This document shows, one piece after another, positions 1 through 60,001 of a stretch of DNA of 64,000 nt. A model generated the notes under the pieces. That model was given only the letters and a program-made list of their open reading frames with translations, made no database searches and was not told the DNA's origin. Made by a program: the position numbers and the translations under genes. Every line of letters begins with the position of its first letter. The first letter of the stretch is position 1. Source of the stretch: Mobula hypostoma (lineage: Eukaryota); NCBI RefSeq assembly GCF_963921235.1, contig NC_086108.1, forward strand, positions 52,764,001-52,828,000, in the 5' to 3' direction.

Positions 1-240
1 GTTCTTTACTTCACCCCTCTCCTCTCCTGGTTTCACTTATCACCTTGTATTTCTTCCTCCCCTTCCCCCAACTTCTTACTCTTGACTCCTCATCTCTTTT
101 TCTCCAGCCCTGCTGAAGGGGCTTGGCCGGAAATGTTGACTGTACTCTTTTCCAATTTTGCTGCCTGGCCTACTGAGTTTCTTCAGCATTTTGTGTGTGT
201 TGCTTGGATTACCAGCATCTACAGATTTTCTCTTGTTTAT
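1..240 (+). mobile_element. Penelope-like element 3' terminal (pLTR) fragment, older copy with degenerate hammerhead
   Basis: Pyrimidine-rich tract, then cagccctgctgaagggg..ggaaatgttgactg..ctgcctggcctactgag..ccagcatctacaga; homologous to the termini at 640-742 and 59850-60000. Confidence 0.75.
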
Positions 241-502
241 CTTGAAGTCTGTAGGCCAGGTCCAATAAATACTTTTGATGCAGTGTCGGAGCAAAAAACT
301 CCATGTGGCATTGAGTTTAAGCCCAGATCTGTGCCGTTTGATGTTCTAAACTGGGTAGTAGTCGATAGTACTGTTTGTCTCAATACCTCTTGGCTTTGAA
401 AAGGAAACATTAGCTAGGGTTTCCCCTTCTGATCCTGGTCCAATGATGCCTTTGGGAAATCATCCAGTAAAAACAGATAGAGTTGGCTGTAGTGAATTTA
501 AA

Positions 503-747
503 AACGCAAACAACAGGAATTCTGCAGATGCTGGAAATTCAAGCAACACACATAAAAGTTGCTGGTGAACGCAGCAGGCCAGGCAGCATCTCTAGGAAAA
601 GGTGCAGTTGATGTTTCAGGCCGAGACCCTTCCCTTACTCACTCTTCCTTCAGTTAGTCCTGATGAAGGGTCTCGGCCTGAAACGTCGACTGCACCTCTT
701 CCTAGAGATGCTGCCTGGCCTGCTGCGTTCACCAGCAACTTTATAAA
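503..747. mobile_element. Penelope-derived fold-back (inverted pLTR) non-autonomous element
   Basis: Inverted arms 555-632 / 665-742; flanking direct repeat agttggctgt at 481-490 and 748-757. Confidence 0.85.
655..692 (+). ncRNA. Minimal type I hammerhead ribozyme motif (Penelope-associated)
   Basis: UAGUC-CUGAUGA-AGGGUCUCGGCCU-GAAAC-GUC-GACUG: stem I UAGUC/GACUG, intact core, stem II, stem III reduced to palindromic ACGU; predicted cut after C687. Confidence 0.8.
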
Positions 748-1428
748 AGTTGGCTGTGTTGTGTCTGGTGAATCAGCTAACCATGTATAGGCTGGTTTGC
801 CTGGAAAAATCGAATTAAATCAAATTCCACCATAATCTTCATGAAATCAGCAATGACATGGGATATTATAAGAAACTACAGATTTGGACCATAAGACATG
901 GGAGCAGAATTGGGCCATTCAGCCCATCAAGTCTGCTCTGCCATTCTATCATGGCTGATCCTGGGTCCCACTCAACCCCAACACCGGCCTTCTCGCCATA
1001 TCTTTTGATGCCCTGACCGATCAGGAAATGATCAACTTCCGCCTTAGATATATGCACGGACTTGGCCTCCACCGCAGTTTGTGGCAGAGCATTCCACAGA
1101 TTTACTACTGTCTAGTTAAAAAGATTGCTTCTTACCTCTGTTCGAAAGGGTCCCCCCTCAACTTTGAGGCTGTGCCCTTTAGTTCTGGATGCCCCCACCA
1201 CAGGAAACATTCTCTCCACATCCACCCTACCTAATCCTTTGAACATTCGGTAGGTTTCAATGAGATCCTCCCACATTTTTCCAAATTCCAGTGAGTACAG
1301 GCTCTTTATTCCTGGAATCATTCTCATGAACCTCCTCTGGACTCTTACCAATGACAACACATCCTTTCTGAGATATGGGGCCCAAAACTATTGACAATAC
1401 TCCAAGTGTGGCCTGATTAGTTTCTTGA

Positions 1429-1692
1429 AAGGAAAGGTACGTCGCATCCGGAGTTTCTCTGGTTAGCGGACGATTTCCCTCCACGCCTTTCTGACGTAGT
1501 GGGGAACCACATACGCGGCAAGTCACAGCAGTGGTTTTGCCATTGTCTTCTGCCGGGTGAGTTTCCAAAGAGATCACCAGCTCGTAACCCAGCACGACGG
1601 AAAGCATGCAGGGGAGCCAGCTGGAGCTGGATTCGAACTCGGGACCTTTCATCCCGAAGTCTGAAGCTGATGCCAGTACGCCTCCAGCCAGG
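1429..1692 (-). mobile_element. tRNA-headed SINE with RTE-like internal/3' segment (copy 1)
   Basis: Minus strand has a B box GAGTTCGAATCC and GGCAGAAGACAATGGCAAAACCAC; homologous to 2557-2812; possible tcttga TSD. Confidence 0.8.
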
Positions 1693-2556
1693 TCTTGACT
1701 TTATTACTATAACTAAAGATTTAGAAACTCAGTGACTCAATGCAAAACATATCCATGTGCAGATTATAATAGTGACCATTATCTCCTTGCTTTTATATTC
1801 CATTCCCTTTGAAATAAGTGGCAGCATTGCATTTGCCTTCCTTACCACAGACTCAATCTGTGAAATAACCTTTTGGGAGTCTTGCATGAGGACTCCTAAG
1901 TCCCTCTGCAGCACTGAAGTTTGAATCTTCTCCCCATTTAGATAATAATCCGCACTATTGTTCCTTTTACAAAAATGCATTATCATACATTTCCCAACAC
2001 CATATTCTATCTGCCACTTTTTTGTCCATTCTTCCAATTTGTCTAAGTCTTGCTGCAATCGCATTGCTTTCTCAGCATTACCTATCCCTCCAACTGTCTT
2101 CATATCATCCACAAACTTGGCCACAAAAGCCATTATCCAAATCATTGACAAACAATGTGAAAAGCAGCGGTCCCAATACTGACCCCTGAGGGACACCACT
2201 AGTCACTGGCAGCCAACCAGAAAAGTTCCTTTTTATTTCAACTCGCTTCCTCTTGCCTGTCAGCCATTCCGTTATCCATGCCAGTATCTTTCCTGTAACA
2301 CCATAGGATTTTATGTTGTTAAGCTGCCTTGTTTTGTACCTTATTAAATGGCTTCTGAGTAAATGACATCCACTGCCTCTACTTTGTCCACCCTACTTGA
2401 TTCTTTCTCAAAGAACTTTAACGGATTTGTCAGGCAAGATTTCCCTTTATAGAAACCACGCTGACTTTGACATTTTATCATTAGTCTCCAAGTACCTCGA
2501 AACCGCATCCTTAACAATAGACTCCAATACTTTCCCAACCACTGAGGTTAGGCTAA

Positions 2557-2812
2557 TAATAATGTAGCTAGCATCCGGAATTTTTCCGGGTAGCGGACGA
2601 CTTCCTCCCACACCGTTCTGACGTAGATGGAATTTGCGTACGAGGCAAGTTACAGCAGTGGTTTGCCATTGCCTTCTGCCGGGTGAGTGTTTTCTTCAGA
2701 GATCACCAGCTCTTAACCCCACACGGATGGAAAGCATGCCGGGGGGAGCTGGCTGGGTTTGAACTTCGGAACCTCCGCTCCGCAGTCCAGCGCTGTTGCC
2801 ACCAGCCGGCCT
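2557..2812 (-). mobile_element. tRNA-headed SINE with RTE-like segment (copy 2)
   Basis: 14-bp TSD tgaggttaggctaa (2543-2556, 2813-2826); B box-like GAAGTTCAAACC; short (TTA)n tail. Confidence 0.87.
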
Positions 2813-5800
2813 TGAGGTTAGGCTAACTGGCCTATAATTTCCTTTCTTTTGCTGTCCTCCCTTCTTAAATAGTGGAGTGACATTGGCAATCTTCCAGTCC
2901 TCTGGGACCATGCCAGAATTGAGTGATTTTTGAAAGGTCATGACCAATGCATCCGTTATCTCTTCAGCAACCTTTCTGAGGATTTTGGGATGTAGTCCAT
3001 CTGGTCCAGGTGACTTATCCACCGTAAGACTTTTGATTTGCCTAGCACTTTTTCCTTTGTGATAGTAATGGCACTCACTCTTGCTCCCTGACACTCATGG
3101 ACCTCTGGCACATCGCTAGTGTCTTCCACAGTGAAGACAAATGCAAAGTACCCATTAAGTTCATTTGCCATTTCTTTGTCCCCTATTACTACCTCAGCAG
3201 CATCATTTTCCAGTGGTCCAATATCAACTCTCACCTCCCTTTTACTCTTTATATAACTGAAAAAAACTTTTTAGTATCCTGCTTTATATTATTGGTTAGT
3301 CTGCCCTCATATTTCATCTTTTCCCTTCCTAAAACTTTTTAGTTGCCTTTTGTTGGATTTTAAAAGCTTCTCAATCATCCAATTTACCACTCACTTTTAC
3401 TACCTTATATGCCATTTCCTTGGCTTTTACGCAGTCCTTAACTTCCTTTGTCAGCCACAGTTGCCTACTCCTGCCATTTGAGAACTTCTTTCTCTGTGGG
3501 ACATATCTATCCCCTGCTTTGTGAACTATTCCCAGAAACTTCAGCCATCTCTGCTCTGCCATCATCCCCGCCAGTATCCTCCACCAATCCACCTGGGTAA
3601 GCTCCTCTCTCATGCCTCTGTAATTCCCTTTATTCCATTACGATACTGATACATGTGACTTGTGCTTCTCCCTCTCAACGTGGTATGAATTCAATCATAT
3701 TATGATCACTGTCTCCTAAGGGTTCCTTTATGTTAAGCTCCTGAATAAGATCTGGGTTATTACACAGCACCCAATCTAAGGTAGCTTTTGCCCAAGTAGG
3801 CTCAAGCACAAGCTGCTCTAAAAAGCCATCTTGTAGGCATTCAACAAACTCCCTCTTGGCACCAACCTGATTTTTCCAATCCCCTTGCATATTGAAATGC
3901 CCCATTACAATTGTGTCATTACACTTATTTAATGCTTTTTCTGGCTCCCTTCACAATATCAACCCCACATCTTGGCTACTAGTTGGAGGCCTATATATGA
4001 CTCCCATAAGGATTTTTTTTTTTACCCTTGCAGTCTCTTAATTCCACCTACACAGATTCAACATTCTATGACCCTATGTCACTTCTTTCTAAAGATGTAG
4101 TTCCATTTCCAACCATCAGAACCACACCATTGCCTATGCCTTCCTGCCTGTCCTTTTGATACAAGATATATCTTTTGATGTTATGCTCCCAACTATGGCA
4201 TCCTTTCAGCTACGACTCGGTGGTACCCACAATGTCAAACTGACTAATCTCTGATTGCACCACGAGTTTGTCCACCTTATTCCGAATGCTACACGCATTT
4301 AAATAGAGCACTTTCAGTCCTGCTTCTTCACCTTTTTGAATTTTGCCTCTGTGGTACAATTTAACTCTTTGCTCTGTCTGCATTAGTACTCAGTCATTGG
4401 CTTCTCCTTACTTATATTCATGTTAACACCCATCATCTACTTGTCAACCTGCTGGCTCATCTTCAGCTCTATCATACTGGTCCCCATCCCCCGCTGTATG
4501 AGTTTAAACCACTCCCAACTGCACTTGTAAATCTGCCTGCAAGAATATTGGTTCCCCTTGGATTCAAGTGCAACCCATCCTTTTTGTACAGGTCCCAGTT
4601 TCCCCAGAAGAGATCGCAATTATCCAGAAATCTGAATCCCTGCTCCCTGCCCCATGCTCTAATTCATCAGCCACACATTTATCTGCCACTCCATTCTATT
4701 TCTGTCCTCACTGCTGCACGGCACAGGTAGCAATCCCAAGATTACTACCTTTGAGGTCTTGCTTCTCAGCTTAACTCCTTGTATTATTTTTTTAAGGACC
4801 TCCTCCCTTTTTCTTCCAATGTCATTGGTACCAATATATACCACAATTTCTGGCTGCTCACCCTCCCTTTTCAGGATATTGTGGACATGTCCAGAAACAT
4901 CTCAGACCCTGGGACCTGCAAGGCAAACTATCATCCGTGTTTCCTTTTCGCGTCCACAGAATCGGCTATCTGTCTCCCTGACTATAGAGTCCCCTATTAT
5001 TGCTGCCATTATCTTCAGTTCCCTACCCTTCTGAGCACTGGGCCAGACTCAGTACCAGAGGCACGGCCACTGTCGCTGCCCCCAGGTAGTTTGCCCCCCA
5101 CCCCCAGCAGTACTCAAAATGGAGTACTTATTGTTGAGGGGGATGCCCACAGGGGGTGCTCTCCCCTTTCTGATGTGTCCTTTCCCTCTCATGACAGTGC
5201 TGGCTTAGTGTTAATAAACTTTTTCTTGGGTTAAATGTAATGACTTTAAACTTCCTTCAAGACCAGATCATAATACAGTACTGACTGACTACAATATTTT
5301 TGTCAGGTTTCACATTTGAAAGAAACAGTGAAAAAGAGTTCATAACTGCCTGAGTGATTATACCAGCTTTGCATGCATTATTGAGAAAATAGTGATGGAG
5401 TTTCCTAGAAATGTGGTTATCAGAATTGAACCAATGCTTGCCACCAACACTTTTAAATTTCTTTAAACATTTATTTTCTGAGGCATGGCCATTACTGGCA
5501 AAATCAGAATTTATTATCCATCTTTAATTGACAGTAAAGGGCCAACAACATTGGCCTCTTATGGGTTAGGCAGGCAGACTTCCTTCCCTGAAATGCCCTG
5601 TGTGAAATTAAGTAAACCAATTTGAGATTTCGGACAATCTGGTAGTTTTATCATCACCATTGCCTAATAACTTTTTTATAATTAGAACTGCTGTAGTGGG
5701 ATTCTGGCATATGTTGCTGGCTATCAACCCAGTAAGTTCACTATCTGTAATTTACTTGTTTTGTATTGTTTGTTGAATCTTATTACTACCATATTTATAA

Positions 5801-6285
5801 GTGAATACTCTCCAAACGTTATTCAATTACTTCAAAAATCACTTTTTGCTTTTTTTTTTAATTTTAAAGGAGAAATGAGATAAACCCAACAAATACAAGC
5901 CAGTTAACTTTCTGTTGTGGGAAAACTTAATGGCTAGTTCTAGATAAAATTAGTGGCCAAATTTAAAAAGATGGGCATACATTCTTTTCATCTGTTTGGA
6001 TTTAGAACATCGAATAGTATAGCACAGGAACAGGCCCCTTGACCCACAATATTGTGCCAAACGGATGAAACTAGTAACTGAATGTCTAACTTGACTAGTC
6101 CCTTCTGTACACCATATTCATGTTCCTTTATTCTCTGCTCCTTCAAGTGCCTGTCCAACAGCCTCTTAAATACCTCTATCTTATTTGCCTCCACCAGCAC
6201 CCCTGGCAGAGCATTCCAGGCACTCACCACTCCCTGCTTTTTAAAAAAAAACTTGCCTCACCCATCTCCTTTGAACCTACCCCAT

Positions 6286-7031
6286 ATATAACCATATAAC
6301 AATTACAGCACAGAAACAGGCCATCTCGGCCCTTCTAGTCCGTGCCGAACTCTTACCCTATCCTATTCCCACCGACCTGCACTCAGCCCATAACCCTCCA
6401 TTCCTTTCCTGTCCATATATGTATCCAATTTAACTTTAAACGACAACATCGAACCTGCCTCAACCACTTCTGCTGGAAGCTCATTCCACACAGCTACCAC
6501 TCTCTGAGTAAAGAAGTTCCCCCTCATGTTACCCCTAAACTTTTGTCCTCTAATTCTCAACCCGTGCCCTCTTGTTTGAATCTTCTCCACTCTCAATGGA
6601 AAAAGTCTAACCATGTCAACTCTATCAATCCCCCTCATAATTTTAAACACTTCTATCAAGTCTCCCCTCAACCTTCTACGCTCCAAAGAATAAACACCCA
6701 ACTTGCTCAACCTTTCACTGTAACTTAGGAGATAAAACCCAGGCAACATTTTAGTAAACCTCCTCTGTACTCTCTCAATTTTATTGACATCCTTCCTATA
6801 ATTCGGTGACTAGAACTGTACACAATACTCCAGATTTGGCCTTACCAATGCCTTATACAAATTCAGCATTACATCCCAACTCCTATTCTGAATGCTCTGA
6901 TTAATAAAGGCCAGCAAACCAAAAGCTTTCTTCACCACCCTATCCACATGAGATTCCATCTTCAGGGAACTATGCACCATTATTCCTCGATCCCTCTGTT
7001 CTAAAGCATTCTTTAATGCCCTACCATTTAC
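6286..7031 (-). mobile_element. Younger 5'-truncated CR1 nested in an older CR1
   Basis: Well-preserved C-terminal [52 protein letters not shown]; repeated (ccatataa) tail; short ccccat flanking repeat. Confidence 0.87.
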
Positions 7032-8018
7032 CCCCATTATCTTAAATTCAAGCCCTCCAGTATTACACATCTTGACCTTGGGAAAAAGATATTGCTATTT
7101 AATCTCCATGCTTCTCATAATATTAAAACATTTATCAGGCCTTTTCACAGCCTCTGTTGCTCTACAGAAAACAACCTATGTTTGTCCAAACTCTCCTTAA
7201 AGCATATGCCTCGAATGCAAGCAGCATCTTGAACTCTGTATGCTCTTCTGTCTTAAAATGTATTGACTAAAATTCAATGCAATATTCCAGAGATGCTTTC
7301 TAGCTTTCTGACTCAGTGCCTCAGTTAATAAAAGCATGCATGTCATATGCATTCTTTAACCTGTGCAGTCACTTTCAATGATCCTGGACATGGGCCTCTG
7401 TATATCAATACTGTTAAGGATCTTGTATTGCACCTTTATATTTGAACTCACATAGTGCAAGACCTCACACTTGGCCAGATTAAACTCTGTATGCCATTTG
7501 TCTGCCGATATCTGCAACTGATCTATAATCTGCTCTATCCTTTGGCGATCTTCTATACTATCCACAATACCATCAATCTTTGTATCATTTGTGAACTTAC
7601 TAACCCACCCATGTACATTTTTATCCAAGTCATTTATATATATCTCAAACATCAGGGGTCCCAATATGGAATACGTCTCTTCATAGAACTCCTGCCAGAA
7701 TACGTACTATCAACCATTACCCTTTGTCTTCTATGGGTAAGCCAATTCTGAATCTAAACAACCAAGTGATTGTGGATCCCATGCATCTTAATCTTGATGA
7801 ACCTACCATAAGGGACCTTGTCAAATGCCTCACTAAAATCTATAGAGAACATTCCCAAATCTATTTTCATCATCTTGAAAAACTCAGTTTTCAGTAAGTC
7901 ACATCTTGCTCTGCTCAAAGCTATGCTGAGTATCCCTATGTTTTTGCAGGTGCTTATGAATTCTTTCTTTAAGAATTCTCTTCAATAGCTTTCCTACCAC
8001 TGAAGTGAGACTCACAAG

Positions 8019-8869
8019 TGTTACGTATCCCGTAACTGAGTTGCCAAACCAGCAGAAATGGACCACTTTGTTGGAGTCTGGATTACTAGAACTAAGAAAG
8101 TTTTATTAAAGAAATAAGTAACACAGTACTCTAATCGTAAGGATATAAATGCAACAGGTTAGCAATGGTAAAACACACATGTACAGAGAACTAGGATAAT
8201 AGGATCAATCAAGCTCTATCGCAGTCTAGGGGTAAAATGATCAATCTCAAGTGACGCAGAGTTCAGTTCAGTTTAGTTCAGTTCGCAGTAATCGCTGTTG
8301 TGCCGTTGGGGAGAGAGAGAGAGCGAATGATGATATTCAAATCGGATTCAAACAGACCTTTGATATTCCTCGCAGTTAGCTTTCGGGCGAGCCCTTTGTA
8401 ATGTCTTCGGAGGTCACCGACTGTGACCCCTCCGTTCCGGATACGATCGTTCTTCTGTGGTGAACCGGGCACCCAGGCAAGGGCGGACACACACACCAGG
8501 TTCCCGCCGATCGTACCTTTTCCTCCTGTGCGTCTATGGTCGGTCCTGTGACCAGACCTCCAAAACTCCCACCAACTTGTGGGGGGGGGGCACACCGCAC
8601 TTCCAGGATCTCGTTATCTCGTGGTGTCGTGGTGCATCGCTTGCCTTAGCGAACCTGTTCCTTTTATCCCCTGCTGGGGTATCGCCTGTCCATCAAACTT
8701 CAAACAGTTCAGGTTCAAAGCAACCGGTCTGACAATACTCGGAACTGTGTCTCTTTTCGTTAATCTCTCTCGTCTCTCTCTTATTAGCATTTTGAATGTT
8801 TCCCCCATTTGTCTCTCTCTTATCTCTCTTATCGGCATCAATCTTCTGATAACTTGGTCTTTTGTCACA
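8019..8869 (-). mobile_element. Solo LTR (851 bp; Gypsy-like by TSD length)
   Basis: TGTTAC...GTCACA termini; 4-bp TSD caag (8015-8018, 8870-8873); interrupts continuous CR1 sequence; minus-strand AATAAA near 8101 and GATAAAAG near 8665. Confidence 0.88.
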
Positions 8870-9555
8870 CAAGTCAATAGTTTCCAGGATTGTTGCCATT
8901 TCCCTTCTTGAATGATGGAGCTATATTAGCTGCTCCTCAGTACTCCAGGACCTCAATTGTGGCTAGAGAGGACATGAAGGTCTTGGTCAAGGCCCCAGAA
9001 ATCCCCTCTCAATAATCTGGGATGTATCCCATCGGGCCCCCTTGGGACTCATCCTCTGTTCTTCAAGAAACCCAATACAACCTCTTTCTTTTTCTCAGAA
9101 TGCTCTAACATATTAGCACGCTGCATACTGATCTCCCTATCATTCATGTGCTTCTTGGTAAGTACCAATGCAAATTACTCATTTAAAACTCGCCAACATC
9201 CTCTGGCGTCAAGCACATGTTCCCTTCTTTGTCACTGTGTGGTCCTACCCTCTCCCTAGTTATCCTGTTGCTCTTGATGTATGCATAGAATGCCTTGGAA
9301 TTTTCTTTAATCCTAGTCACCAAAAAGAATTTTCATGGCCCGTTCTGGCTCTTCTAGTTTCCTTCTTGAGTTCTTTTGTAACTTCTTTGTAATCTTCAAG
9401 GGCTCTGTTTGCCTTTAGCTTTCTAAACCTTACATTTCTTCCTTTTTATTTTTGAATAAATCCACCAGCTCTCTTGTCATTCAAAATTCCCTTACCTTGC
9501 TATCCTTGTCCTATCTTCTTTCTGGAACATATCTCTCCTAATCTCTGCAGTTTGT

Positions 9556-11484: not shown

Positions 11485-14400
11485 GTAAGTATAAAGGCTT
11501 GCTGTTGATTTACTTCAAATACTTGACTTTTTTTTTCCACTTAGAATGTCTAATAGGGAGAGTAACAAAGATAATGTGGGTTACACATTCTTTTAATTCT
11601 GGGGCTGGATTTGAATACAACAGGATAACATGAAACAGAAAATAGTGGAAATGCTTAGCACAATGACCATCCCCTTGAAAGTGAAAAGGGACATTACTAG
11701 CATTAATATTGAGAACCAAGCTCTGCCTAAAGTTTTGATCAATAATTTTTTCCCCCATTGTCGTTCACTGAGTTCCTTCACTTCTGTTTTTAATCAATTT
11801 TATAATTTTCTTTATCAACTTCCTAGAATTAATACCTGTGTGCATTCTGGATTTTTGTCAGTCACGAGAGATAATGAAAGTCTGGCTTCCACTTCATTTC
11901 TCTAAGTTTCAAGTTGGCTGATGTGACAAATGTTGGATCTGCAGTCTCTGCCACAAATGCAGCAAGAAGTGATGGCTGGTTGGGCAATTCTGGAGAGATG
12001 TAAATAGCACACTGGATCTCTTTGTGCTCCTGATGAATGGACTTGGGGTTCTCAATGTTGTCCTGAAAGCTGTTCCGGCATTTTGAGTAGTTACAGGCTA
12101 GGAATATTATACTTTTTCAAGGTTTTGAGAATATATTTGAATTGTTTCCTCTGTCCATATGGCAATCCAGCTTCTTCCATAATAGAGCTTGAAAATTAAT
12201 CCCTAATTTGAGAGTCCAGTGTATGACATGTGAATTACACAGCTTGCCCATTAGAACCAACTGAGTATAATTATGCCCTTAGTTCTAGGGATTGTGATCT
12301 GGAAGAGGTTGCTGATGTTATTTTGTTTAACCTGTCTGTCAATTGAAAGATTTTGGGGAGTATTGGTAGTACCTGTCCATTGCTTTGAGATGGTTATTAT
12401 AGATTTGCTTTCTAAGAAGTTTACAGGAAGGCAGCTGCTGTAGTGGGAGCCAAGTGTGAGAAATTTACAGGAAGGTGGGGATCACTCTTGTTCATTTGAA
12501 CATGAGCTTTGTGCTAGGTTTGATGTGTTGGTCTTCAAATATGCTTTTCCAATGTGCTTGTCTTCAAGTATTCCTTCCCTCAGACGCCTAAAGCCTGCGG
12601 TGGTGTACTGAAAATGGTATGAATTTCATCATCAATATTTCATTATAACCTGAAGTACTTGAATCTTTCTATTTACATAGTTAACTGAATGACTTATGGC
12701 AGAGCAATTTAGCAAACTTCTCATTTTGGTTGACTGTTCTGAATCTTTTTGAACTTGATGAAAGTTTGGTATGGAACACCATTGCAATCTTTCATGCCAT
12801 AAGTAGAACTTATTTAATCCAATTTTTATGCTAGGGTACCATCATATTAAATACTGATAAATCTTAACCTGAAACTTTGAAAGTATTGTTTAACAGTAGC
12901 CTAGGAATAAATTTGAAAGCAAAGTGTCATTTAAATGCAGTTTTTTTTCCTTTGAGATTTATATTCTGCATCTGTTATTTCTTGATAACAGATTAATGCT
13001 TCTTCTTAAAATCATTTCAACCTGGCTGAATTAAACAGTGAGCAATGATGCATTTGAGTGCTTAAAAACTTGTCTTTAATACCCAAGGTGACTTTAAAGC
13101 AATGCAGTATACTTTATTTGTCACTTGATGTCAATGTCTGTGCACTTACTATGCTTTCCACCCATTCAACAGCTTTCTGCTCCCTAGCCCTGACTGCCTC
13201 ATTTTCATCATGAATGTCCAGTTCCTGTTCACTTCCAGCACCCTTTAGGAAAGCCTCAAGGCCCTCCACTTCTTTCATAATAATTGCCCTGACAAGTTCA
13301 CCTACACCACCACCCTTCTCTGTCTGGCAGAGCTGGTGCTCACCTTTTAACAATTTCACTTTTGGCTCCTCCCTCTTTCTCCGGATCAAAGGTGTAGCTG
13401 TGGACACTCCCATGGGCCTTGGCTATGCCTGCTTTTTCACTGGCTATGTGGAACAATACATGTTCCAGATCCTACTTCAGTAACGCTCACCAATTCGCCA
13501 TCAGATTTCGGAATGATCCATGAACCCATGAAGACTATCTCACCATTTTGCTCATTTTTTGCACTATTTATTTCTTATTATAACTTGTAATATTATTTTA
13601 TATATTTCACTGTATCGCTTCTGTAAAACAACAAATTTCACAATATCTGTAAGTGATAATAAACCTGATTCTGATTCAACTTTTTCACCACTACATTGCT
13701 GCTACTTCCTGAACCCATGCAGAGCTCATTAATTTCATCAACTTCACTTCTAACTTCCACCTTGCCCTTAAATTCACTTGGTCCATTTTTGACACTGCTC
13801 TCCCCTTGCTTGATTTGTCTGTCTCCATCTCCAGACAGTTCCACGTAGCCACTGACATCTTTTACAAACTCACTGACTAACCTCTTCCAACCCTGTCACT
13901 TGCAAAAATGTTATTCCCTTCTCTCAGTTCACCTATCTCCACTGTATCTGTTCTCATAATGAGACATTTCATTCTGAGACAACTGAGATGACTTCTTTCA
14001 GAAAATGGGGTTTCCTCTATACTGTTGTCAGTGAAGCTCTCACCTGCATTGCCGCCATTTCCCTATCCCCTGACACAACAAGGATAGGGTTCACCTTTTC
14101 CTCAACCCATCACCCAGCTCTGCATTTGACATTCCATTCTCCACAACTTCCATCATCTCCAACAGGATCCCACCACTAAGCACAACTTCCCCTCCCCTCT
14201 CCTCTTCACTTTCCACAGAGTCTTCATGATTCCCTTGTCTACTCATCCCTCCCCACTGATACCCTTCCAGGCACTTATCCCTGCAACAATGTTAATTGTT
14301 ATTCCTGCCCCTAGACCTCCTCCCTCATCATACAGGGCCCCAAACAGTCCTTCCAGGTGAGGCAGCATTTCACAGGGTCATTGATTGTGGCTTTGTGTGT

Positions 14401-17400
14401 ATCACTGAGACCCAACACAGTTTGGGGGATTGCTTTGTTGAGCCTTCGCCATAACAATCAAAATCTCCTGGTAGCCAGCTATTTTAATTTCACTTCCCAT
14501 TCCCATACTGACATGTCTGTCTGCACTTCATCTACTGCTATTTTGAGGTCATACTCGGAGGGGTGGAGCAACACCTCATATTCCAACTTGGTTGTCTGCA
14601 ACCTGGTGACATCAACATCAATTTCTCTATCTTCTGGTAACCAACTACTCCCCTCTATTTTCCCACCTACCTCCCTTTGTTTTCCTTTATGCCTTTAGCC
14701 CCTTTACTCCTTTTCTTTCCTCTCCTGCTCACCTACCCACAACCTGCCCACCACCTACACCTTCCTCTATTTGGTTTCCATGTCCTTCCTTTTATTCCAT
14801 GATCTCCTGTCCTCTCATATTCAATTCTTCCTTCAGTCCTTTGGCTCTTCATTTATCACCTCCCAGCTTCTCACATCATTCCTTTTTTCCCCTCCCCACC
14901 TTTCTATCTTCCCCCACCCCCATCCTTTTGTTTGGGCTTCTGCCCTCTATCTTTCCAGTTCTGAAGAAGGGTTTCTGTCTGGAATATTGAATGTCCATTT
15001 CCCTCTATAGATGTTGCATGACCTACTGAGTTCCTCCAGCTTTTTTTGCGTGTTCCACCAATATTTCATTCAGAGTAAATTGTTGTAGTATCCATTTCTA
15101 GCCACTGAGTGGCACTGTAGGAAATAAATTGCAGCAATTATCCGCAGCACTACCCTGTGGCTACTACTCATAATTACATTATCTCTTCTGATATCCAGGT
15201 CACAAGGATAAGGTGTTTTACCCATTAGTAATTTATGGGGAGAGCTGGGTGAGAATTTTATATGTAAAGGTGTATAACTAAATTCAAAATTGCTTTTCAT
15301 TGCAAGCAACAGGAATTCTGCAGATGCTGGAAATTCAAGCAACACACATCAAAGTTGCTGGTGAATGCAGCAGGCCAGGCAGCATCTCTAGGAAGAGGTA
15401 CAGTCGATGTTTCAGGCCGAGACCCTTCGTCAGGACTAACCTTCTGACGAAGGGTCTCAGCTTGAAACGTCGACTATACCTCTTCCTGGAGATGCTCCTG
15501 GCCTGCTGCGTTCACCAGTAACTTTGACGTGTGTTGCTTGCTTTTCATTGGGTGCTTTAGCTTTAAAAAAAAAACAGTGCTGGGCTTTTCCTCAGCTGTA
15601 TTGTTGAATGTTCTAGGAAAGTTGGAATCTCAGTAATTTAAGTGACAGGGATAAAAGTCACTGATGCTGAAAATCTAAGGAATTTTTGTAGTTTGATCTA
15701 GCATTTCAAATTGCTGTCTGCTTTCCTGAAAGTACTGACTTTCATAAAGCTACAATGTCACTTGTAAATAATTCACCCAAATTACCATTCTTCATGTATT
15801 AACCTAGATGGTGAGCGTTGGAAGACAGTTTGGTTGTTTGTGGAGTTTAGCCAAACAAAAAGTAAATGGACAACACAGAATTTAAGGAAAAGTTAATTTT
15901 AAGGCAATATGGGTTGAGGCTAGGTATTACAGCATGACAAATAGAGAAAATTTTAGACTTGCAACTAGTGTCAACAAGGAAAAAACATTTGAATAAGGAG
16001 AAATATTGAGTTCAAGGGGAAGCTGATGAATTTGAGGACAAAGACTGCAAGAAAAGTTTTGAAGTGGGGCAATGAAACCAAATATCGTTTAACCCCTTTT
16101 TCCCTTGAGCCTGGCATTCAACAAGCCAGCTTTTAATGCAAGGGTTGTGCAAGAAATAGCATGAGTTTAATGTGAAATAGATAGCAGGATGGATGTATTA
16201 TCAAGAAGTGATTGGATGCTTCCAGCTGATGTGGTGAAGATGTACTCTGGAATTAGTTGCACAGTAACCACAGTGTTCTTAATATAGAAAATAGAACACC
16301 GAACATTACAGCAAAGAAACGAGCCATTTGGCCAACAATGTTGTGCCGAACCAGCTAAAAAGCAATTCAAAAACACCCAAGCACTAATCCCTCCTACCTG
16401 CACAATGTCCATATCCCTCCTCCTTCCTTATGTTCATGTACCTATCCAAACGTCTCTTAAAAGCCTCTAATATATTTGCCTGTACCACCATACCAGGCAT
16501 CCATGACCCTCTGAGTCAAAAAAAACTTACCCTTCACATTCCCCATGAACCTACCTCTTCTCACCTTCAAAACATGCCCTCTGGTATTAGACATTTCAAC
16601 CCTTGGAAACAGATGCTCCCTGTCTACTCTACCTATGCCTTCCATAATCTTAGAAGCCTCAACCTTCAGGGTCCCAGAGAAAACAACCCAAGATTATCCA
16701 GCCTCTCATGATAGCACATACCCTCTAAACCAGGGAGTATCCTGGTAAACCTCTTCTGCACCCTCTCCAAAGCCTCAACATCCTTCCTGTAGTTGGGAGA
16801 CCAGGACTGTATGCAATACTCAAGATATGGCTTCACCGGAGTTTTTAAAAGTTGTGACATAATCTCTTGACTTTTGAACTCAGTGCCTCGACTAATAAAA
16901 GCAAACATTCCATAAGCCTTCTTAACCACCTTATCGACCTGTGTAGCCACTTTGAAGGAGCCATGAACTTGGATCCCAAGATCTCTCTGTCCAGCAAAAC
17001 TGAAACAATGTACTGTCTCCTTGCATTTGCCCTACCAAGGTGCAACACCTTATATTTATCTGGATTAAACTCCATCTGCCGTTTCTCAGCCATATCTGCA
17101 ACTGTTCTATAACGCACTGTATTCTTTGCAGTCTTCTACACTATCCACAACTTCCCCAATCTTGGTATCATCCACAAACTTACTACCCCATTCATTTATA
17201 TTTACATTCAGGTCATTTATAGACATCACAAACAGCAGGGGTCCCAGCACTGATCCCTGCAGAACACCACTAGTTACAAAGCCTTCAGCTCGAATAAGTC
17301 TCTTTAACCACTACCCTCTGAGTTCTATGTGCAAGCCAATTCTGAATCTAAACTGCTAATTTGCTGTGAATCCCATGCACCTTAATCTTCCAGATCAGCC

Positions 17401-20400
17401 TCCATGAGGGACTTTGTCAAATGCCTTACTAAACTGCATGTAGACAACATCCACTGCCCTACCCTCATCAATCCCTCTCATCAGCTTGTCAAAAAACTCG
17501 ATCAAGTTGGAAAGACACGACCTGCCCCGCACAGAGCTGTGCTGGCTCTCCCTAATTAGCCCATGGGTTTCCAAATGCTCATATCCTAACCCTAAGAATT
17601 TTTTCCAGCAATTTCCCTACAACAGTCGTGAGACTCACCAGTCTATAGTTCCCAGGATTTTCCCTTGTTCCTCTTTTAAATAGAGATACAACATTAGCAA
17701 CTCAGTAGTCCTCCAGGACATTGCCTGTGGCTAGAGAGGACATGAAGATACTGATCAAGGTTCCAGCAATCTTGTCTCTTGCGTCCTTCAATAACCTCGG
17801 GTAAATTCTCCCCCTTGAGAATATCCTGCATTACAGTGCAGTTATTCTAGTACCCCGGAGGCAACACGTTATCCTGGTGAATCTTTTGCGGCCACAGCAT
17901 CTCCTTTCTGTCCCCCTGACTATCGAGTCCCCTAAACTACCGCACTGCCTGACTTAACCCTTCCCTGTTCTTGTTCAGTTACACATCAGCCTTCAATTTG
18001 AGAAGGTGAGAAATGCCTTCCATATTCCAATTTGGTTAATTATTGCCTTATCATTCTCCTCAATCTAATATGGTGCCACATGGGGGTTAATGGAAACTAT
18101 TGGCATCCTTGTGTACCATGTTTCCAGTAAGTTTTCACAGATCAAGAAACTTAAGTTCCTAGTCTGAGCTAGAATCCAAGTTATAGACGTTGTGGTGCAT
18201 CAGGGAGGAGGAAATTTTGTTCCAGGAGGTAGTCACACATCTTATATTAAGTACTGTGCATTTGATCAATCAAAAGGTAAAGGAGGATGTGGGAAGTAGG
18301 TATGAGAATCCAGAGGTTAGGGTTTCAGGGGTCTGTCCTTGCACTTGTCCATAACGTAGAGGATTATTACAGTCCGTGTGGATGAGATCAGACACTGAAT
18401 GGAGGATGAGCAAAATGTCGATATGTTGTATGGGAGGGGGCTTTGCATTGGAGGAGTGAAAAATAGTCTAGTGGTAGTAGGAGACAGTTTAGTTCTAGGT
18501 ATAGATAGCATTCTCTGCAGTTGCAAGTATGAGGCCTGAAGGATGTATCACTAACCAAGGTAAGAATATTTTATTGGGAAGTGTAGATACAGTTGTGATC
18601 CATGTAGAAAGAAAGATGGGATAAGAAAAGAGATTCTGTGGAGCCAGTGTAGGCAGGTAGGGTCCGCATAAAGAAACAGAACTATAAAGGTAGTTAGTGT
18701 GTTGATATTCTGCAACCAGAGGTTAGAAAGCAGGACTGTAAAGATAATAAATCTCCTTACTCCTTACTTAAAACATGTGCCATGTATTCATGAGTATAGA
18801 AAGGCGAAGATAGAACAGGTGAATGGTTGAAAAGAATGAATGTAGGAGGGAGGGATTTAGATTTCTGAGGAATAGGAGCTTTCCCTGAATGAGGTTGAAT
18901 CTCAGCAAATCAGATGGATTCCATTTTAGTGGAACTGGGTCACTTGATTTGCTAGTGCTGTTGTGGAGGATTTAAACCTATTTGTCAGGGAAAGGGAAAC
19001 ATGAGGATTTAATTAGGAGGAGAAGTTTAGGTGGAGATGGAAGTTAGGTGTTCAACTGAAGTGGCATTTAGGAAAGCAAAGAGAAAGGAAAGTCAATAGG
19101 GCAGAGTAATGACAAAAATAATTATCCAGCTTATTTGAGAAAGGGGCTTCTGAGGGATATAGTTGGGAACTTACTACTCAAGCATATTTGACGTTTGAGC
19201 ACTACTGGCAGAAAGGAAAACGAGGTAGGAAAACCCTGTAATTGAAGGATGAGAGGTGAGTAAACATTGCAATAATATAACAAACATATTGATAAAAGGA
19301 TCAAGTAGATATATTCGGTTTTGCAGGGGTATTCCATTAGGAAACCATAAGTTCTGATACAACCAGGAAATAAGTTATCCAAAATTGTTGAATTCAGTAT
19401 TGAGTTCTGAAGGCTGTATTGTGTATTGGTGAAAAATTCAAGTATATGTTGGGCTTCTTGGAACACCAGGCTGCCGAAGGCAAGAATACTAGAACAGGAC
19501 AGTGAATTAGTAATGAGTGATTAAATTTCAGTTACTCCTACTGATTGAATAGTTATTCCGCAGTCACCTTATTGGAAGGAGTTCAAGTGAATTGCTGCTT
19601 CACCAAGAAAGATAGTTTGGAGGTAGAAAAGGAAGTGTTACATCTTCTGTATTTGCACAGGGAAGTGCCATGAGAAGAGTAGTTAGTAGAGGTAGAAGAG
19701 CAAACCAGGAAGTCTGGAAGGCAATAGTTGCTTTGGTTGGCGGTGGGGGTGGGGGGAGGAAGATGGGCAAAATTGTGTTTGATGCTGAAATCTTGTTGAA
19801 GGTGTTGAAAATTACAGAGGAGGATTGGTTGAGTGTGAAGGCCAGTAGCATAGAAAGTGGGGAGGAAAGCTGGGAGCTTGTTCTTGCTCTGCCTGGAAGA
19901 AGGGGAGTGGACATAGAAGTGTAGGAATTGGAACAGGATTGATGGATCTGTCAACTTTGCTGGAGGGGAAAAAACTATTGTTAACCTTTTCATGCATTGA
20001 CTCTAAGAAACTTTATAATTCATCATCATATTTCCAACTAAGATTACGACAGAGTTGTGAACAGCAAGTTTAGTGTGAGATCAATGTCCATAAAATTTGA
20101 AATTACTGGTGTTACTTTTTTCTGTCAGACAAAAGTGGTCCCTCCTTCCAATTAAGCTCATGCATTATTAACATTTTATAAATTTCATATTATATAAAAC
20201 TATTATACTAGCATTGATTTTCTCTCTTAAAATTCTTCATTGTGTACTGTATTGAAGCAATTTTGTATTATTGGAGGTGCCATTTTTTTGAGCAATGTGA
20301 CCACACTGCAAAAGTGATTCTTTAACTGTCAAAACACGTTACTGTATTTGCAGTGTTGAATAAATAGTGTTTCTCTCCTTTTCGGTTTCTAGTGCCCTTA

Positions 20401-44400: not shown

Positions 44401-47400
44401 TATGACCATGCATTTCCCAACATTGTATTTCATTTGCCACTTCCTTGACTATTCTCCTAGATCCTTCTGCAGCCTACCTGTTTCCTTAGCACTACCTGCC
44501 CCTCCACCAATCTTTATATTGTCTGCAAACTTGGCAACAAAGCCATCTATTCCATCATCTAAATCATTGATATACAGCATACAATGAAGTAAACCTTTGT
44601 ACAGCTCTAAAATGGGACTTGAACCTGGAACTTTCTGAATTGTGTTCCAAATGAGTTACAGTCAGCAAAAGTGAAAATAATTTTTATTAAAAATTGGGAA
44701 AATGAGAATAGGAAAATATTTCAAATGCTTGTGGATAAAAGATTAATATTTATTGCATAATTTTGTATGGTTTAACACACTAAAATCACAGTAATCTAAA
44801 ATTCTTGCGCTTAGATCTCCACTTGTATTTTGCATTTCCTGGTCTGTCCTGTCTGAACATTTTGTATTTGGAAAGAATTGTTCCCAATGCCTTTGCCTCA
44901 TTATGATCTTGAGTTGCATTAGTTAATAGGAACATTGATTTTAAATGACTCAGCCCCTTCATGTGTAGCTAAGGGTATTAACTTCAGATTGTAACTGAAT
45001 TATACAGGCTAGGAGGACTTATGAATTACTTGCAGTACAGACGCTAAACTTGGCCCTTCGTTTGAAGGGGGAAAAGTCCACGCTGTCAATTGACAGCAAA
45101 ACAGGAAACTCAGCTTGAAAGTGAACTACAGGTACCTCTATATTTCCTGAAAAGAGGATGAATTTGCCTGTATTCCCTTGTAGTCAAAGGGCTGTCCACA
45201 ATACTTGTTGTTGGAAGTTGCATATGAATAGCAATTTTTGGGTGAGACACCAATGAGAATCAAGATCTCTGGAATTCCTCAAAGAAAACTTTAATAGAAT
45301 GATATAAAACTGGATAAGAAAGATTATACTAATCAGACTTTTTTTTGTGAATAGCAATTCCAGCAGTTGAATTAGCAGAACAAGGCATGAGTTAAAAGAG
45401 GGAGATAAAAACTTCTGCTCATAATTTGAAAGCATGGGAACCCATGGGCGGAATGTTCAAACTTATGGTCAATAGTGACATTGAACTCAATAAATTTGGT
45501 AATTTCCAGCTTTGAAATCAAAGCCACATGTGTGTTTTTAAATACCTTGTGGCAATGTAGGTCAAATTAAGGCAAGACACCAATATTAATGCGGTCAACT
45601 CTTGTAAGGAATTCTTTACTAACTGAATGTACAAATGTTGAGAGAGTTGGCTCATTAGGAAATTTTGAATGGGAGTCATTCTGAATTGTCTTTGTCAGCC
45701 AGTGTTCCAATCTCTATCGTCACCATCTCTTGCAAATCCTGATTCATCAGATAAGAGATGTACACCCACGGGGGGCGGGGTGGGGAGCAGAGTACAGTAG
45801 TACACAACTGTTATTTAAACAATAATATATAGTCTACAAACACATCTGATAATTATGTCAAGAACCTTTTCTCTTCCTCCCACCACTTTTTCCCCTTCCA
45901 TCTATGAAAGTCATGTGTGAGGTGAGGACATATCATTTAATGAAGGTTCCTCCGAATGATGGGAAATGGATGCTTCCATAATTTTATGCATTTGCCTCTC
46001 CCTCAGCTCTATTCCAAAGAAAACAACTCTAGCCCATCCAATGTTTCATATCTGTTTTTCTGGTTCTGGCAGCATCTTTTCCAGGGCAATTGTACATTTC
46101 CTATGGAACTGTACACAATTCTCAAACTGTGACTTAATGTGCATATATACAGTTCCTTCATAACCTTTCTGCATATTTTGTTTACCTTTTTTAAACTGTT
46201 GACAACTTAAGGATCTGTGGACACCTGTTCTGCTGCATTTCTCTATTCTTCCATTTATGGAATTATTCCTCTTTTCCTTTACTTCTTAAATGACTTTGAC
46301 TGATTAAATTCTGTTTACCACTTATCTGCTTCACTATCCAAATCATTTGTATCCTCAAATTGAAAGTTTTCCTCCATCTTTTTTATCTTCAAACTTCTTT
46401 TTCCTGCCAAGTATGTCTAAGCCACTTTTATATAAGTAAATAAACCAAGGGACTATTTTGGAACGTCATGGTTTAGAGCATTCTAGTCTCACAAACAACT
46501 AACAATCATTACCTTCTGCTTTCTACCATTGAACTAAATTTCAGTCCAGGTTGGCACTGTTCCTTTGATCCCAGGAAATTTTACTCTTTTGACTGGCCTA
46601 CTTCATGATCACTTGTCAGTAGCCTTGTTGAAATCCATGTACACTACAAACTCTGTGCTCTCATCAACCCTTTGTTTTTTCCTTAAAATATATAATAAGT
46701 TAGTCAGACATGACCTTGTTTTGAGTAATCATTCCTTATTCTGTCTTAATACAGTCCTTCTAAATTGATTCCAATAATTTGTTTACATTTTAAGTTAAAC
46801 TAACCACCTTCTCAATTTATCCTTCCTTTCTAAACGTTGGTACAGTGTTAATGGTCTTCCATTTCTCTGGCACTTCTGTTGGCAGGAAGGATTGAAAAAT
46901 GATGGCTCGGAGCTTCTGCAAAATCTTTCTTTGCTTCCTTCAACAATGTTTATATTTCAACTGGTGCTGGTAATTTATTCTCTTTGAAAGAGGCTCAATT
47001 TTGAAATATATTATATTTATCCCATACAATAGTCCTCTTACTTTCTCCTAAATTACAACATTGATATTATTCTGCTCTTGTAAACAGTATAAAATTTTCA
47101 TTAAGAACTGGACCCATGTCTTCCCCCTCTATATGAAATTTTGTCTTTCATAGACCAATTCTTATTCCAATATTGTCTTTTGCTTTATATTCTTTTTCCC
47201 TGATTGTACCTTACAAATTAATTTCATTTCTTCTGTTTTCATGGACACAAGACTCTACAGATGTTGTAAGTCTTGAGTAACACACACAAAATGCTGGAGG
47301 AAGTCAGCAGGTTAGGCAGCATCTATTGAGGGGAATACGCAGTCAGTGTGGATTGGAGAGGAAAGGGGCTCCATCTTTTCTCTTGGCATGAGTAAAGCTC

Positions 47401-50400: not shown

Positions 50401-53400
50401 TTCCAATATGACGTTTAAATTCAGTTAGTAACATAATCTAAAACAAAAAGTCTTGGTAATGAACTGGACTCTATTAGATTCTTGTGGCTGATGGATTAAT
50501 GGTAACAGTTTAAAAAGTGATAACACAGATAAAGTACCAAAAATTGTCATGAAACTCAGAAATGGTAGAAGATGAGATGCTGTTCCCCATGCTTGCATTG
50601 GCAGGAGACCACAGATGCTTGCTGCCCTGCAGAGAGGCAATGGATGCCCTTTTGCCTCTTTCTTACCCACCATCCAGGCATCTAAAAAGTCTTTCCAGCT
50701 GAAGCAGTTACACTTCCTCCAGGCTAGAATACTGCATTGGATTTCATAACGTCGTCTCCTCTACATTGGAGAAACACAGATTGGGCAGCTGCCTTTCAAA
50801 GCACCTGCATTCTGACTGCTTTGCAATTGATGTCTTTTCAAAATGTGTTTAATGTAAGGAAAATGTTATATCTGATGGCATGAATTTTATCCAGAAAGGT
50901 CAGTATAGTTTTACTGTGGGTGCAGTTTCACCTGGAAATTATCAGTTAGTTGACTTACTCTGGGTTTCATCAGTTTCATATGACATAACAAAAAAATCTG
51001 TGCCACATGTTCCAATTTCTAGGCAAATACATCCAACTAATTCTGCTCTATTCTTTTATCTTCCATTAATAATCATGCATTACAATCTTATTTGATCATA
51101 TGAGACAATTTCAGAATTGATAGTATAATTAGAATTATTATAAGTACTGTTTTCTCCAGTTGAAGTGTGCTAAGTGTAATACTGCTGCAAGCAAATTTTT
51201 CATTGTACCTCTACCTCACCGTACTTGTGCATATGACAGTAAACTCAACTCGATTTGATTTGAATTGTATTTATCAGGATTAGTAAACCAGTGGAGTTGT
51301 CCGTGCTTTTTGCTGAGGGGCTAATTCTGCAATTTTTGTTGTATTTTCAGTCTTATCACTGTCCATCTCCAAAAAAAATGTCATTTGGTAAAATGGATCC
51401 TAGCTGCACAATAGGACTTTATTCATCCAACAAATATTATTTTGAACACATAATTGATGAAGTAACAAAGGTGAGTGGTAGAATTATTGATGGAGTAGGC
51501 TGGGATAAGTCACTGGGTAATTTCTTTCTTCACTGTTTCTCTGTACTACTTAAAATCTATTAGAAGAAGTAAATAATCATCTGATAGAGCCGATTAATAA
51601 GGGTATAACTTGGTATAGCATTAACCATACATTCTTGGAAGATCTGAATTAATTGAGATTTGCTGCATTGATTCCAGGGAGTGGCAAAATAATCCAAGAT
51701 TCCCACACTGATGTGTAAGAATAGTACTTTATTTTATAGATTTGTTCTTTCATATTGTGCTTAATGAAAATTATGGTAATTGTACACGGGAATTTTCGGG
51801 TTAGTTGAACTGCAGCTTTTCACACTTTATTGGTTAATGATGGAGGAATAAGAAATGTACTTGTCAAGTGCACATATTTTACTTGTAGATTTGAAAAAGA
51901 CGATGGCAAACTATCCTTTTGGTTAGAAGCTAGAAGTAAAAGGGGAGGAGTTGAAATACCTCATTGTTTTTTCAGTTTCATATGAATTCTTAACAACAAA
52001 AGCCAGGAAGCTACCAAGCCTGTCATATTTTTAATTGACCTAACCATCTTCTCAACATGGCCCTTAGTCCTTCCTTCTCGAGAAAATCTGTTCTGGGGAA
52101 TGTTTATATTACTCGCTTCAAGAGACTTCTCTGATTTATTATACACTTCTATTACCTATTTGGAATAAAATTTCTGCCTCATTTCCCTTTTTCATAACCT
52201 ACCTGTTCTTGTTACCCCTGGTATTTGAATCCTGAAACACAATGAGCAAATTGCCAGGTCAACTTTGTCAATTCCTTTTATCACCTTAAATATAATTAAC
52301 TCACCACACCAAATTCAGTTATTTTTGTGTACCATAATCATCAGTGATATTTTGAAAGCAGTTTTGTGAAGACTGCATCTATAATTTTACAAAGCATTCC
52401 TGCTAATCAGAAGTCCGGGGTTCAATTTTCCTATTAGCATTGTTCATTCATTTGACATTGTATTTTTCAAACAGCTGTCAAATATTGTGACCAGCAGGTG
52501 GCAATATTGAAAGTAAAATAAATCTAAGCTTGGCAAATCACTTTCATTATACTCTGACTTAAATGAAGCTTTACATTGTGTGCAGTTCTGATAGATTATT
52601 TCATTCATGGCGCACACTAAAGTTGGTTTGATTTGGGGGGAAATTATTCTATTAGTGCATGAAAACGTGCTTAACTGTAAGGAAATTTAATTTATCTTAA
52701 ATTCTTTTCTGCATAAAAAATAGAATTAACCATTTTAAATGTTAAAAATTATTGATTTAACAGATATAAACCTGTCCTTTGTTTAAATATAGTCATCACA
52801 TTAGTAACTGATGCTCAGATACACTTTGTAATGCATACTACTCAATCTTCATTGATCTCATTTTCTTGGGTGACATACCCTCCACAACCTGCAGCTTCAG
52901 ACGCACAATCTTGTGCAGTCCAGTTCTACCTTCTACACAAAGATCTTCCTTCAGTCTTCTCTTTTCTTTTCCCTCTCAATGAGATCTTTCCTATATCCAT
53001 TGTGACATCTCTGATGTCCTCAACTTCTATATCTCCTGCCTCCATCAATGAGTATTCACTACTTGACATATCTTCTCCTCCCCTCTCTTGACCATCTTGA
53101 AGGGACCATACCTTCTTTGCTTCACTGTCCCACTTTAACATCTTTACCACCCACTCCCATTTTCTTGGCACATTCCCATGTGCATGAAGTGCAACATCTG
53201 CTATTTTGTTATGTCCCTTCCTATCATCTGAGAACCCAAAGAAATGAAGCAACAAAGCCCTTGCACGTCTTCTAGTTTAGTTTGTTGAGTTAGCTGTTTA
53301 TGCCAAGGTTGTGTCTGCATTGGAGAAAGTAAATGTAGATTGAGTGACCACATTCCTGATTTCTGCACTGCAGTACACAAGCTCAGACATCAGGAAAGCA

Positions 53401-59385: not shown

Positions 59386-59750
59386 CTGGGACAGGAATCA
59401 GGCCTTAGTCTGTTAAAGTAGATGGTAACCTATGAGAGCACGTTTAATGTAGCACTGAAAGTGTTCTTATTTGAGAGTTGAGGCAAACAGTGTCGCACCA
59501 TCTTATTAGACGCAATTGGAGCTAACTGCTTCTGCTTTTGTTCTTATTCTGGATTATTTTATTCTGAAATAATTTTGAGTTTATTCCTCCTTAATGCACT
59601 ATTGTTGATTATCTTCAAGTGCCTCAATCCCATTCAAAGAAGATTTTTTGCAGAATCAAGTTTGATATCGCTGGCATATATCATAAAGTCTGTTGTGTTG
59701 CAGCAACAGTACATTGCAATAGATTTTTAAAAACTACAATAAGAAATATT

Positions 59751-60001
59751 AGCAACACACATCAAATTTGCTGGTGATCGCAGCAGGCCAGTCAGCATCT
59801 GTAGGAAGAGGTGCAGTCGACGTTTCAGGCCGAGACCCTTCGTCAGGACCTGAAACGTCGACTGCACCTCTTCCTACAGATGCTGAAATGTCGACTGCAC
59901 CTCTTCCTACAGATGCTGCCTGGCCTGCTGCGTTCACCAGCAAATTTGATGTGTGTTGCTTGAATTTCCAGCATCTGCAGAATTCCTGTTGTTTGCGTTT
60001 A
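59751..60001. mobile_element. Penelope-derived fold-back element with an internal 33-bp tandem duplication
   Basis: 13-bp TSD aataagaaatatt (59738-59750, 60002-60014); inverted arms about 59751-59829 / 59849-59960; duplication 59851-59883 / 59884-59916. Confidence 0.9.
59814..59850 (-). ncRNA. Minimal type I hammerhead ribozyme motif
   Basis: Minus strand GGUC-CUGACGA-AGGGUCUCGGCCU-GAAAC-GUC-GACUG; intact core, 4-bp stem I. Confidence 0.75.

Follow-up and report, generated by a model that had tools for sequence, protein, structure and literature searches.

Minimal hammerhead ribozymes (min-HHRs) have been described in the Xena, Poseidon and Neptune Penelope-like elements (PLEs) of fishes (Cervera and De la Pena, 2014, PMC4209133). 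According to that study, they do not cleave as single motifs and cleave at a low level as dimers; the G10.1-C11.1 pair is highly conserved in min-HHRs, yet does not belong to the published descriptor. Descriptions of PLE insertions also include inverted, 5'-truncated partner copies and one-sided tails (Arkhipova et al., 2013, PMC3846280; Craig et al., 2021, PMC8557442). In the Poseidon element PAc of Anolis, reverse transcription from two start sites was found to account for the tail; the ribozyme was reported to cleave only in the presence of the element protein and to be dispensable for insertion in vitro, and no read ends were found at its cut site (Frangieh et al., 2024, PMC11167929). Related non-coding hammerhead retrozymes occur in the sole sampled chondrichthyan genome, every species with them also has PLEs, and one of nine Xenopus retrozyme dimers was cleaved (bioRxiv 10.64898/2026.07.22.740005). 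Finally, conserved intronic hammerheads of amniotes, in RECK and other genes, are found in many species and have tertiary interactions (PMC6155905).

We analyzed a stretch of 64,000 nucleotides of the Mobula hypostoma genome (contig NC_086108.1, positions 52,764,001 to 52,828,000), hereafter the window. Inspection of the sequence revealed a minimal type I hammerhead motif of 38 bases on the plus strand at 655-692 (Table 1). The original prediction had given the letters of stem I, the core, GAAAC and GUC, the cut after C687 and the loopless palindrome ACGU correctly. Its stem I of 5 bp does have five pairs, four of them Watson-Crick and the terminal one U-G. In the best fold of the isolated motif, stem II consists of G668-U679, two G-C pairs and U671-G676, closes a 4-nt loop, leaves A667 unpaired, and has pair probabilities of 0.82-0.91. 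Thus, two of the four stem II pairs are G-U, including the first one, and the description of the motif as intact holds for the full core, but needs qualifying at the opening of stem II, where min-HHRs have the highly conserved G10.1-C11.1 (PMC4209133).

Table 1. Features of the hammerhead motif, the surrounding insertion, related copies and the host gene (positions in the window).
Feature	Position	Strand	Remarks
Stem I	655-659/688-692	+	4 Watson-Crick pairs and a terminal U-G
Core CUGAUGA	660-666	+	by sequence
Extra A between core and stem II	667	+	unpaired in best fold
Stem II region	667-679; pairs 668-671/676-679	+	fold of isolated motif
GAAAC	680-684; GAAA 680-683	+	by sequence
Loopless palindrome ACGU (reduced stem III)	683-686	+	by sequence
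GUC	685-687	+	predicted cut after C687
Inverted pLTR	502-632	-	begins inside the hammerhead; without CUGA and stem I 5' strand
Direct 5'-truncated pLTR	631-742	+	holds the hammerhead; 96% identical to 3' end of longer copy (53902-53791)
78-bp hairpin	555-742; arms 555-632 and 665-742, loop 633-664	+	folding prediction
10-bp word	481-490, repeated 748-757		offset 11 and 5 nt from element ends
Young copies of element end (n = 4 in window)	502-742, 15302-15546, 53791-54780, 59743-60000		
Older copies	near 106-238, 13.2-15.0 kb, 47.3 kb		
Second fold-back stump	15302-15546		13-bp target-site duplication (15290/15538)
Third fold-back stump	59743-60000		downstream of ATG4C stop codon; 13-bp target-site duplication (59738/60002)
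Longer 5'-truncated copy	53791-54780	-	in the last intron of ATG4C; has a linker between RT and endonuclease, a remnant of GIY-YIG and the 3' pLTR
GIY-YIG endonuclease frame	54177-54482	-	Pfam PF01541, E 2.6e-5, 24.9 bits vs. cut-off 22.6
C-x4-C-x2-C linker motif	54545-54571	-	upstream of GIY-YIG domain, by sequence
ATG4C coding exons, residues 26-468	11400-55307	+	nine exons, tblastn with five elasmobranch ATG4C proteins

The motif shares most of its features with the published min-HHRs (PMC4209133). It is of type I with the core order CUGANGA...GAAA...UH (660-666, 680-683 and 686-687), has a helix I in the range of 4-5 bp (four Watson-Crick pairs and U-G), a palindrome at 15.2-16.2 without a helix III loop (ACGU), and an extra, unpaired nucleotide between 9 and 10.1 (A667) followed by a helix II of four pairs. 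Like them, it is situated in a PLE pLTR, as this pLTR end is also found 3' of the GIY-YIG frame of the copy at 53791-54780, and occurs mostly as single dispersed copies. The differences are the length of helix II (four pairs, two of them G-U, vs. 7-8 bp in the Schistosoma families), its opening pair (G-U vs. G10.1-C11.1), and the predicted masking of this copy by an inverted arm.

To estimate the role of chance, we used a strict minimal-hammerhead descriptor comprising the core, a stem II of at least 3 pairs, the loopless palindrome and a stem I of at least 4 pairs. It matched the window twice, at 655-692 and on the minus strand near 59846, and none of the 60 first-order Markov simulations of the window. 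The 34-nt pattern with at most 3 mismatches had four copies in the window and none in 100 shuffles, while the loose pattern CTGANGA-N5-30-GAAA had 17 matches against 6.6 expected. The motif is a real minimal hammerhead sequence rather than a chance match. The Rfam hammerhead models had no match in 1-3000 at E≤10, probably because helix III is missing, and the motif is assigned to no Rfam family. Four other Rfam matches in the same region (MIR6020, mir-4650, PrrB_RsmZ and mir-504) were below the gathering scores and were rejected as generic fold-back matches. Across ten copies in the window, none of the eight helix pairs showed a two-sided change. Exact-pattern scans of metagenome contigs and of viral contigs yielded no loci in either set.

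The element to which the motif belongs is represented in the window by a longer copy, as 631-754 is 96% identical to 53902-53779 of the minus strand. The pLTR hammerhead of this longer copy has a G8A core change; the copy also carries a short inverted tail piece and a 14-bp target-site duplication (53780/54777), and its truncation leaves it without the RT region. The GIY-YIG frame is out of frame with the upstream linker and is 94% identical to a predicted RT-endonuclease-like protein of Mobula hypostoma. In that search, ten of 57 candidates passed. Relatives P0121, P0123, P0124 and P0129 have, by eye, a YIDD/YVD-type motif upstream of the endonuclease, and Pfam found nothing but GIY-YIG in the four relatives scanned. 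A Cys-rich CX2-5CxxC linker separates Neptune and Nematis from Penelope/Poseidon (PMC8557442, PMC3846280), and only Neptune and Poseidon PLEs are reported among the vertebrates sampled in bioRxiv 10.64898/2026.07.22.740005. Since the ray family has a linker of the Neptune/Nematis type, it likely belongs to the Neptune clade, an assignment resting on one linker motif and not on a tree. On sequence grounds, 655-692 represents the pLTR hammerhead of a PLE that is abundant in the ray; the link to the GIY-YIG-bearing copy supports the original proposal of a minimal type I hammerhead, its stem III reduced to a palindrome, from a PLE pLTR. A pLTR hammerhead and a tail are likewise present in the PAc element of Anolis, a PLE that differs in being of the Poseidon clade and experimentally active (PMC11167929); the ray family has the Neptune-type cysteine linker.

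The family is very abundant. Public contigs aligned to 240-900 numbered 104,610 in run X1, 69,266 in X5 and 19,654 in X9, with depth heaped on the repeat bins and single-contig depth over the unique flanks; contig totals and summed depths are no copy number. In run X15, presumed to be RNA, the repeat bins were covered and the unique flanks were not, which says nothing on the transcription of 502-742. Among the best 40 of 49 variant entries, family variants of at least 5% within the motif were located at 664, 679, 691 and the CpG sites 684, 685 and 687. C at position 679 makes up 17% (X1), 21% (X5), 69% (X9) and 19% (X15) of the family depth, and the pair at 679 is maintained in the family as G-C or G-U, the change being one-sided. 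Position 664, the free N7, is T here and C in 71% of the X1 family depth; the variant at 691, in stem I, was listed through run X9. The three CpG sites of the motif were about 9% variant each (X1), the CpG sites 570 and 571 outside it 16% and 13%, and larger variants were seen just beyond the motif, at 693 (53%) and 705 (33%). This pattern, from a partial list (the best 40 of 49 entries), fits constraint on parent elements and largely neutral CpG decay of copies. Of the 15 joints listed among 536 in family contigs, nine were at 656-660, and large groups of loose ends start at 656, the sequence upstream of them being mixed (agreement 0.38-0.47). The outer edge of stem I seems to be where many family copies begin, and the direct copy in 502-742 starts 24 nt further upstream.

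The insertion carrying the motif, at 502-742, is a 241-bp stump with no ORF, in which an inverted pLTR is joined to a direct one with an overlap of 2 nt (631-632). At its 3' end, the inverted pLTR exceeds the direct copy by about 53 nt, which form a tail (502-554); it is no ribozyme, since CUGA and the 5' strand of stem I are missing. The two arms differ at three sites, and at two of these, 609 and 612, the change is C-to-T at a CpG relative to the other arm. The 10-bp word on both sides of the stump is at best an imperfect target-site duplication. Complex PLE insertions described earlier (PMC3846280, PMC8557442) have the same arrangement of a truncated direct copy and an adjacent inverted one, a tail at one end, a short junction overlap, and target-site duplications, present here in the sister copies. 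By contrast, the stump is only 241 bp long with no ORF and an imperfect target-site duplication, and its tail is about 53 nt vs. the published 30-40.

All four young copies in the window contain an inverted piece, and three of them have a clean 13-14-bp target-site duplication, 502-742 being the exception. In the stump at 15302-15546, the plus-strand motif is without the 5' strand of stem I and the minus-strand motif has a broken palindrome. The stump at 59743-60000 has an intact core on the minus strand, for which burial in a long hairpin is likewise predicted (fold of -177.6 kcal/mol), and part of its arm is duplicated internally. The direct pLTRs of two independent copies stop at the same base (742 and 53791), those at 15.5 kb and 59.75 kb extend 10-15 nt beyond it, and the inverted copies about 50 nt. 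This pattern of ends is compatible with a small number of preferred start sites for reverse transcription. Contigs of organisms A and B cover the unique flank and end 14, 17 and 24 letters into 502-742, and under a 31-letter bridging rule no contig bridges the insertion. In organism C (run X9), a 315-nt contig with a depth of 4.3 covers 267-490, and a depth of 4.3 is seen again from 769 to about 830. This hints at an empty site and is not counted as evidence, with no joint across it among the 15 of 536 listed.

The host gene, ATG4C, is encoded on the plus strand. Its first exon in the window, at about 11400, is 10.7 kb downstream of the motif, the exon at 20662-20883 matches Peptidase_C54 and shares 93% identity with stingray ATG4C, and the nearest named relatives are myliobatiform rays. 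Residues 1-25 had no tblastn match in the window with any of the five elasmobranch queries. Therefore, the motif is sense-oriented, and its likely position is the ATG4C intron that precedes the exon at 11400. The original statements on the missing start exon, the sense orientation and the probable intron were thus supported.

To see how the motif would fold in its context, we predicted equilibrium structures, which take no account of tertiary contacts, proteins or editing. On the plus strand, the two arms form a hairpin of 75 Watson-Crick pairs, two G-U pairs and one mismatch. It covers 665-692, from the end of CUGAUGA (two bases) through stem II, GAAA, the palindrome and the cut site to the stem I 3' strand. 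For the region 540-760, the predicted fold has -168.1 kcal/mol (z -21.4); none of 200 shuffles was as stable. Imposing stems I and II while keeping the core open cost 2.5 kcal/mol in the bare motif, 9.7 kcal/mol in 633-742, which is without the upstream arm, and 49.0 kcal/mol in all contexts with both arms (555-742, 480-800 and 300-1000). Because the upstream arm is transcribed first, the hairpin is predicted to form before the cut site: in folds of the growing transcript, the arm pairs reach a mean probability of 0.99 at transcript end 680, before C687 exists. The minus strand of 555-742 is without CUGA. These predictions do not support the working ribozyme in the pre-mRNA that the original description implied. 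Its interval of 655-692 delimited the motif properly and overlooked the inverted pLTR at 502-632, which is made first in the transcript and whose predicted pairing with 665-742 imposes the penalty of 49 kcal/mol.

Hence, with high confidence, we read the locus as the pLTR hammerhead of a PLE, likely Neptune, caught in a 241-bp fold-back in a likely ATG4C intron, predicted to pair with its inverted copy and so likely never to cleave. The observed parts of this reading are the motif, the anatomy of inverted and direct pLTRs with the tail, the link to the GIY-YIG copy, and the orientation of the gene. By analogy with published PLEs, the motif of the parent element would cleave after GUC in tandem transcripts, as a dimer or a protein-assisted ribozyme, and the stump would go back to an insertion truncated at its 5' end and joined by an inverted partner. 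Judging from the folding, arm 555-632 of the plus-strand transcript would be made first and would capture 665-742 during its synthesis. In that case, a long intronic double-stranded hairpin would result instead of a ribozyme, and the locus would be decaying like other dead copies. Among the points against a decaying, masked stump are the unclean target-site duplication, the lack of an Rfam hammerhead match, the absence of two-sided helix changes among the ten window copies, and the unmutated core of 655-692. The last of these says little, as a core or palindrome change is seen in two of the three other full-length young copies (n = 4). Moreover, proteins, editing or a dimer partner upstream of position 1 could alter the prediction of masking.

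Intronic inverted repeats serve in other vertebrates as A-to-I editing substrates or sources of small RNA, and the near-perfect 78-bp duplex in a likely pre-mRNA could be used by the host in the same way, the ribozyme being irrelevant. The best Rfam matches are indeed to miRNA-precursor models, though all under the gathering scores. Nevertheless, any fold-back insertion yields such a hairpin (there are three in the window), the arms bear CpG-type changes, and 502-742 has no sign of selection, so that we consider host use unlikely.

An active intronic ribozyme that cuts the ATG4C pre-mRNA as a trans-dimer or with the aid of a protein, affecting splicing or yield, is still harder to accept, and we regard it as very improbable. 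The core is intact and in sense orientation, the abundance of the family (104,610 contigs on 240-900 in X1) means that trans partners could exist, and conserved intronic hammerheads are known in amniotes (PMC6155905). Against it stand the folding penalties, which amount to 49 kcal/mol in context and still to 9.7 kcal/mol when the upstream arm is left out, and the G-U pair at the start of stem II. For two isolated motifs, the double hammerhead had -11.5 vs. -26.7 kcal/mol for the best alternative, a weak test, as ViennaRNA, used for this comparison, ignores core contacts. In addition, the window's part of ATG4C has no intact sense-strand partner for a dimer: of the other three motif copies on the sense strand, those at 105 and 14956 have an altered core and the one at 15439 is without the 5' strand of stem I, and the remaining near-intact copies in the window are on the minus strand. 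Finally, the amniote ribozymes are conserved across many species (PMC6155905), whereas 655-692 is within a repeat insertion.

If the element were a palindromic DNA transposon (MITE) that resembles a hammerhead by chance, the long inverted arms and the short total length would be accounted for, but the arms are unequal (one has the 53-nt tail), their centres differ between copies, the strict descriptor had no matches in 60 simulations, and the link of the same end to the GIY-YIG frame of a PLE ORF largely refutes this least probable explanation.

Comparison with the other intronic and PLE-derived hammerheads leads away from both classes. Animal non-LTR retrozymes are, like 502-742, non-coding PLE-derived units with type I hammerheads, and in Xenopus they are often intronic; however, they are head-to-tail tandem units, while 502-742 is a single head-to-head fold-back (bioRxiv 10.64898/2026.07.22.740005). 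Having no head-to-tail tandem units, 502-742 is ruled out as a non-LTR retrozyme. The amniote intronic hammerheads (PMC6155905) are also of type I and on the sense strand of an intron (here a likely one), but 655-692 is a minimal motif that sits within a repeat insertion and is predicted to be masked by a hairpin. It shows nothing that would mark a domesticated intronic ribozyme.

The kind of element is already known, as vertebrate PLE pLTR min-HHRs and inverted pLTRs with a tail have been published (PMC4209133, PMC3846280, PMC8557442). As for the ray family itself, two supplementary files of PMC4209133 contain no shark, skate or Callorhinchus entry, and the manta genome preprint gave no whole-word matches for 'PLE' or 'ribozyme' in the text searched. 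A search for a 14-nt motif returned no papers, and we found no paper naming the ray hammerhead family; the species list of Lunse, Weinberg and Breaker (RNA Biol 14:1499), which was outside the search, could include chondrichthyans.

As a single copy, 502-742 is of little importance, being a remnant of an abundant element of a known kind with a ribozyme predicted to be masked. It does show that the flanks should be included when hammerhead calls in PLE stumps are folded. The ray family, in turn, provides a test set for statistics of cleavage in vivo, with very many near-identical intronic copies, masked and unmasked, in either orientation. One could imagine that the inverted arm is a built-in antisense catch, and that sense-strand intronic copies with an intact core persist in ray genomes mainly when masked, the unmasked ones being purged. 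We consider this a doubtful speculation; if true, it would provide evidence, at the scale of the genome, for cleavage of host pre-mRNA by minimal PLE hammerheads in vivo.

The window contains further traces of PLEs and other repeats. The 3' end of a copy from a diverged PLE subfamily, 72-78% identical to the young family and with the core changed to CUGCUGA, occupies 1-238 of the plus strand, 390 nt upstream of the 502-742 fold-back. An older, broken PLE copy at 13210-15030 (plus strand), in the second ATG4C intron of the window, has remnants of the RT region and the endonuclease (tblastn to P0121-P0130) and includes the decayed hammerhead at 14956. Short PLE-like remnants were found by tblastn or blastn at 19586-19906 (minus strand), 47254-47324 and 50645-50779 (plus strand). 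Another short dispersed repeat has two copies, 80% alike, at 1444-1647 and 2571-2774, and LINE-like remnants with matches elsewhere in the window are located at 887-1407, 1777-2293 and 6141-9530. Among the protein relatives, the stingray models P0123 ("divergent protein kinase domain 1C isoform X2") and P0125 ("mucin-2 isoform X2") consist mostly of the PLE ORF and look like annotation artefacts.
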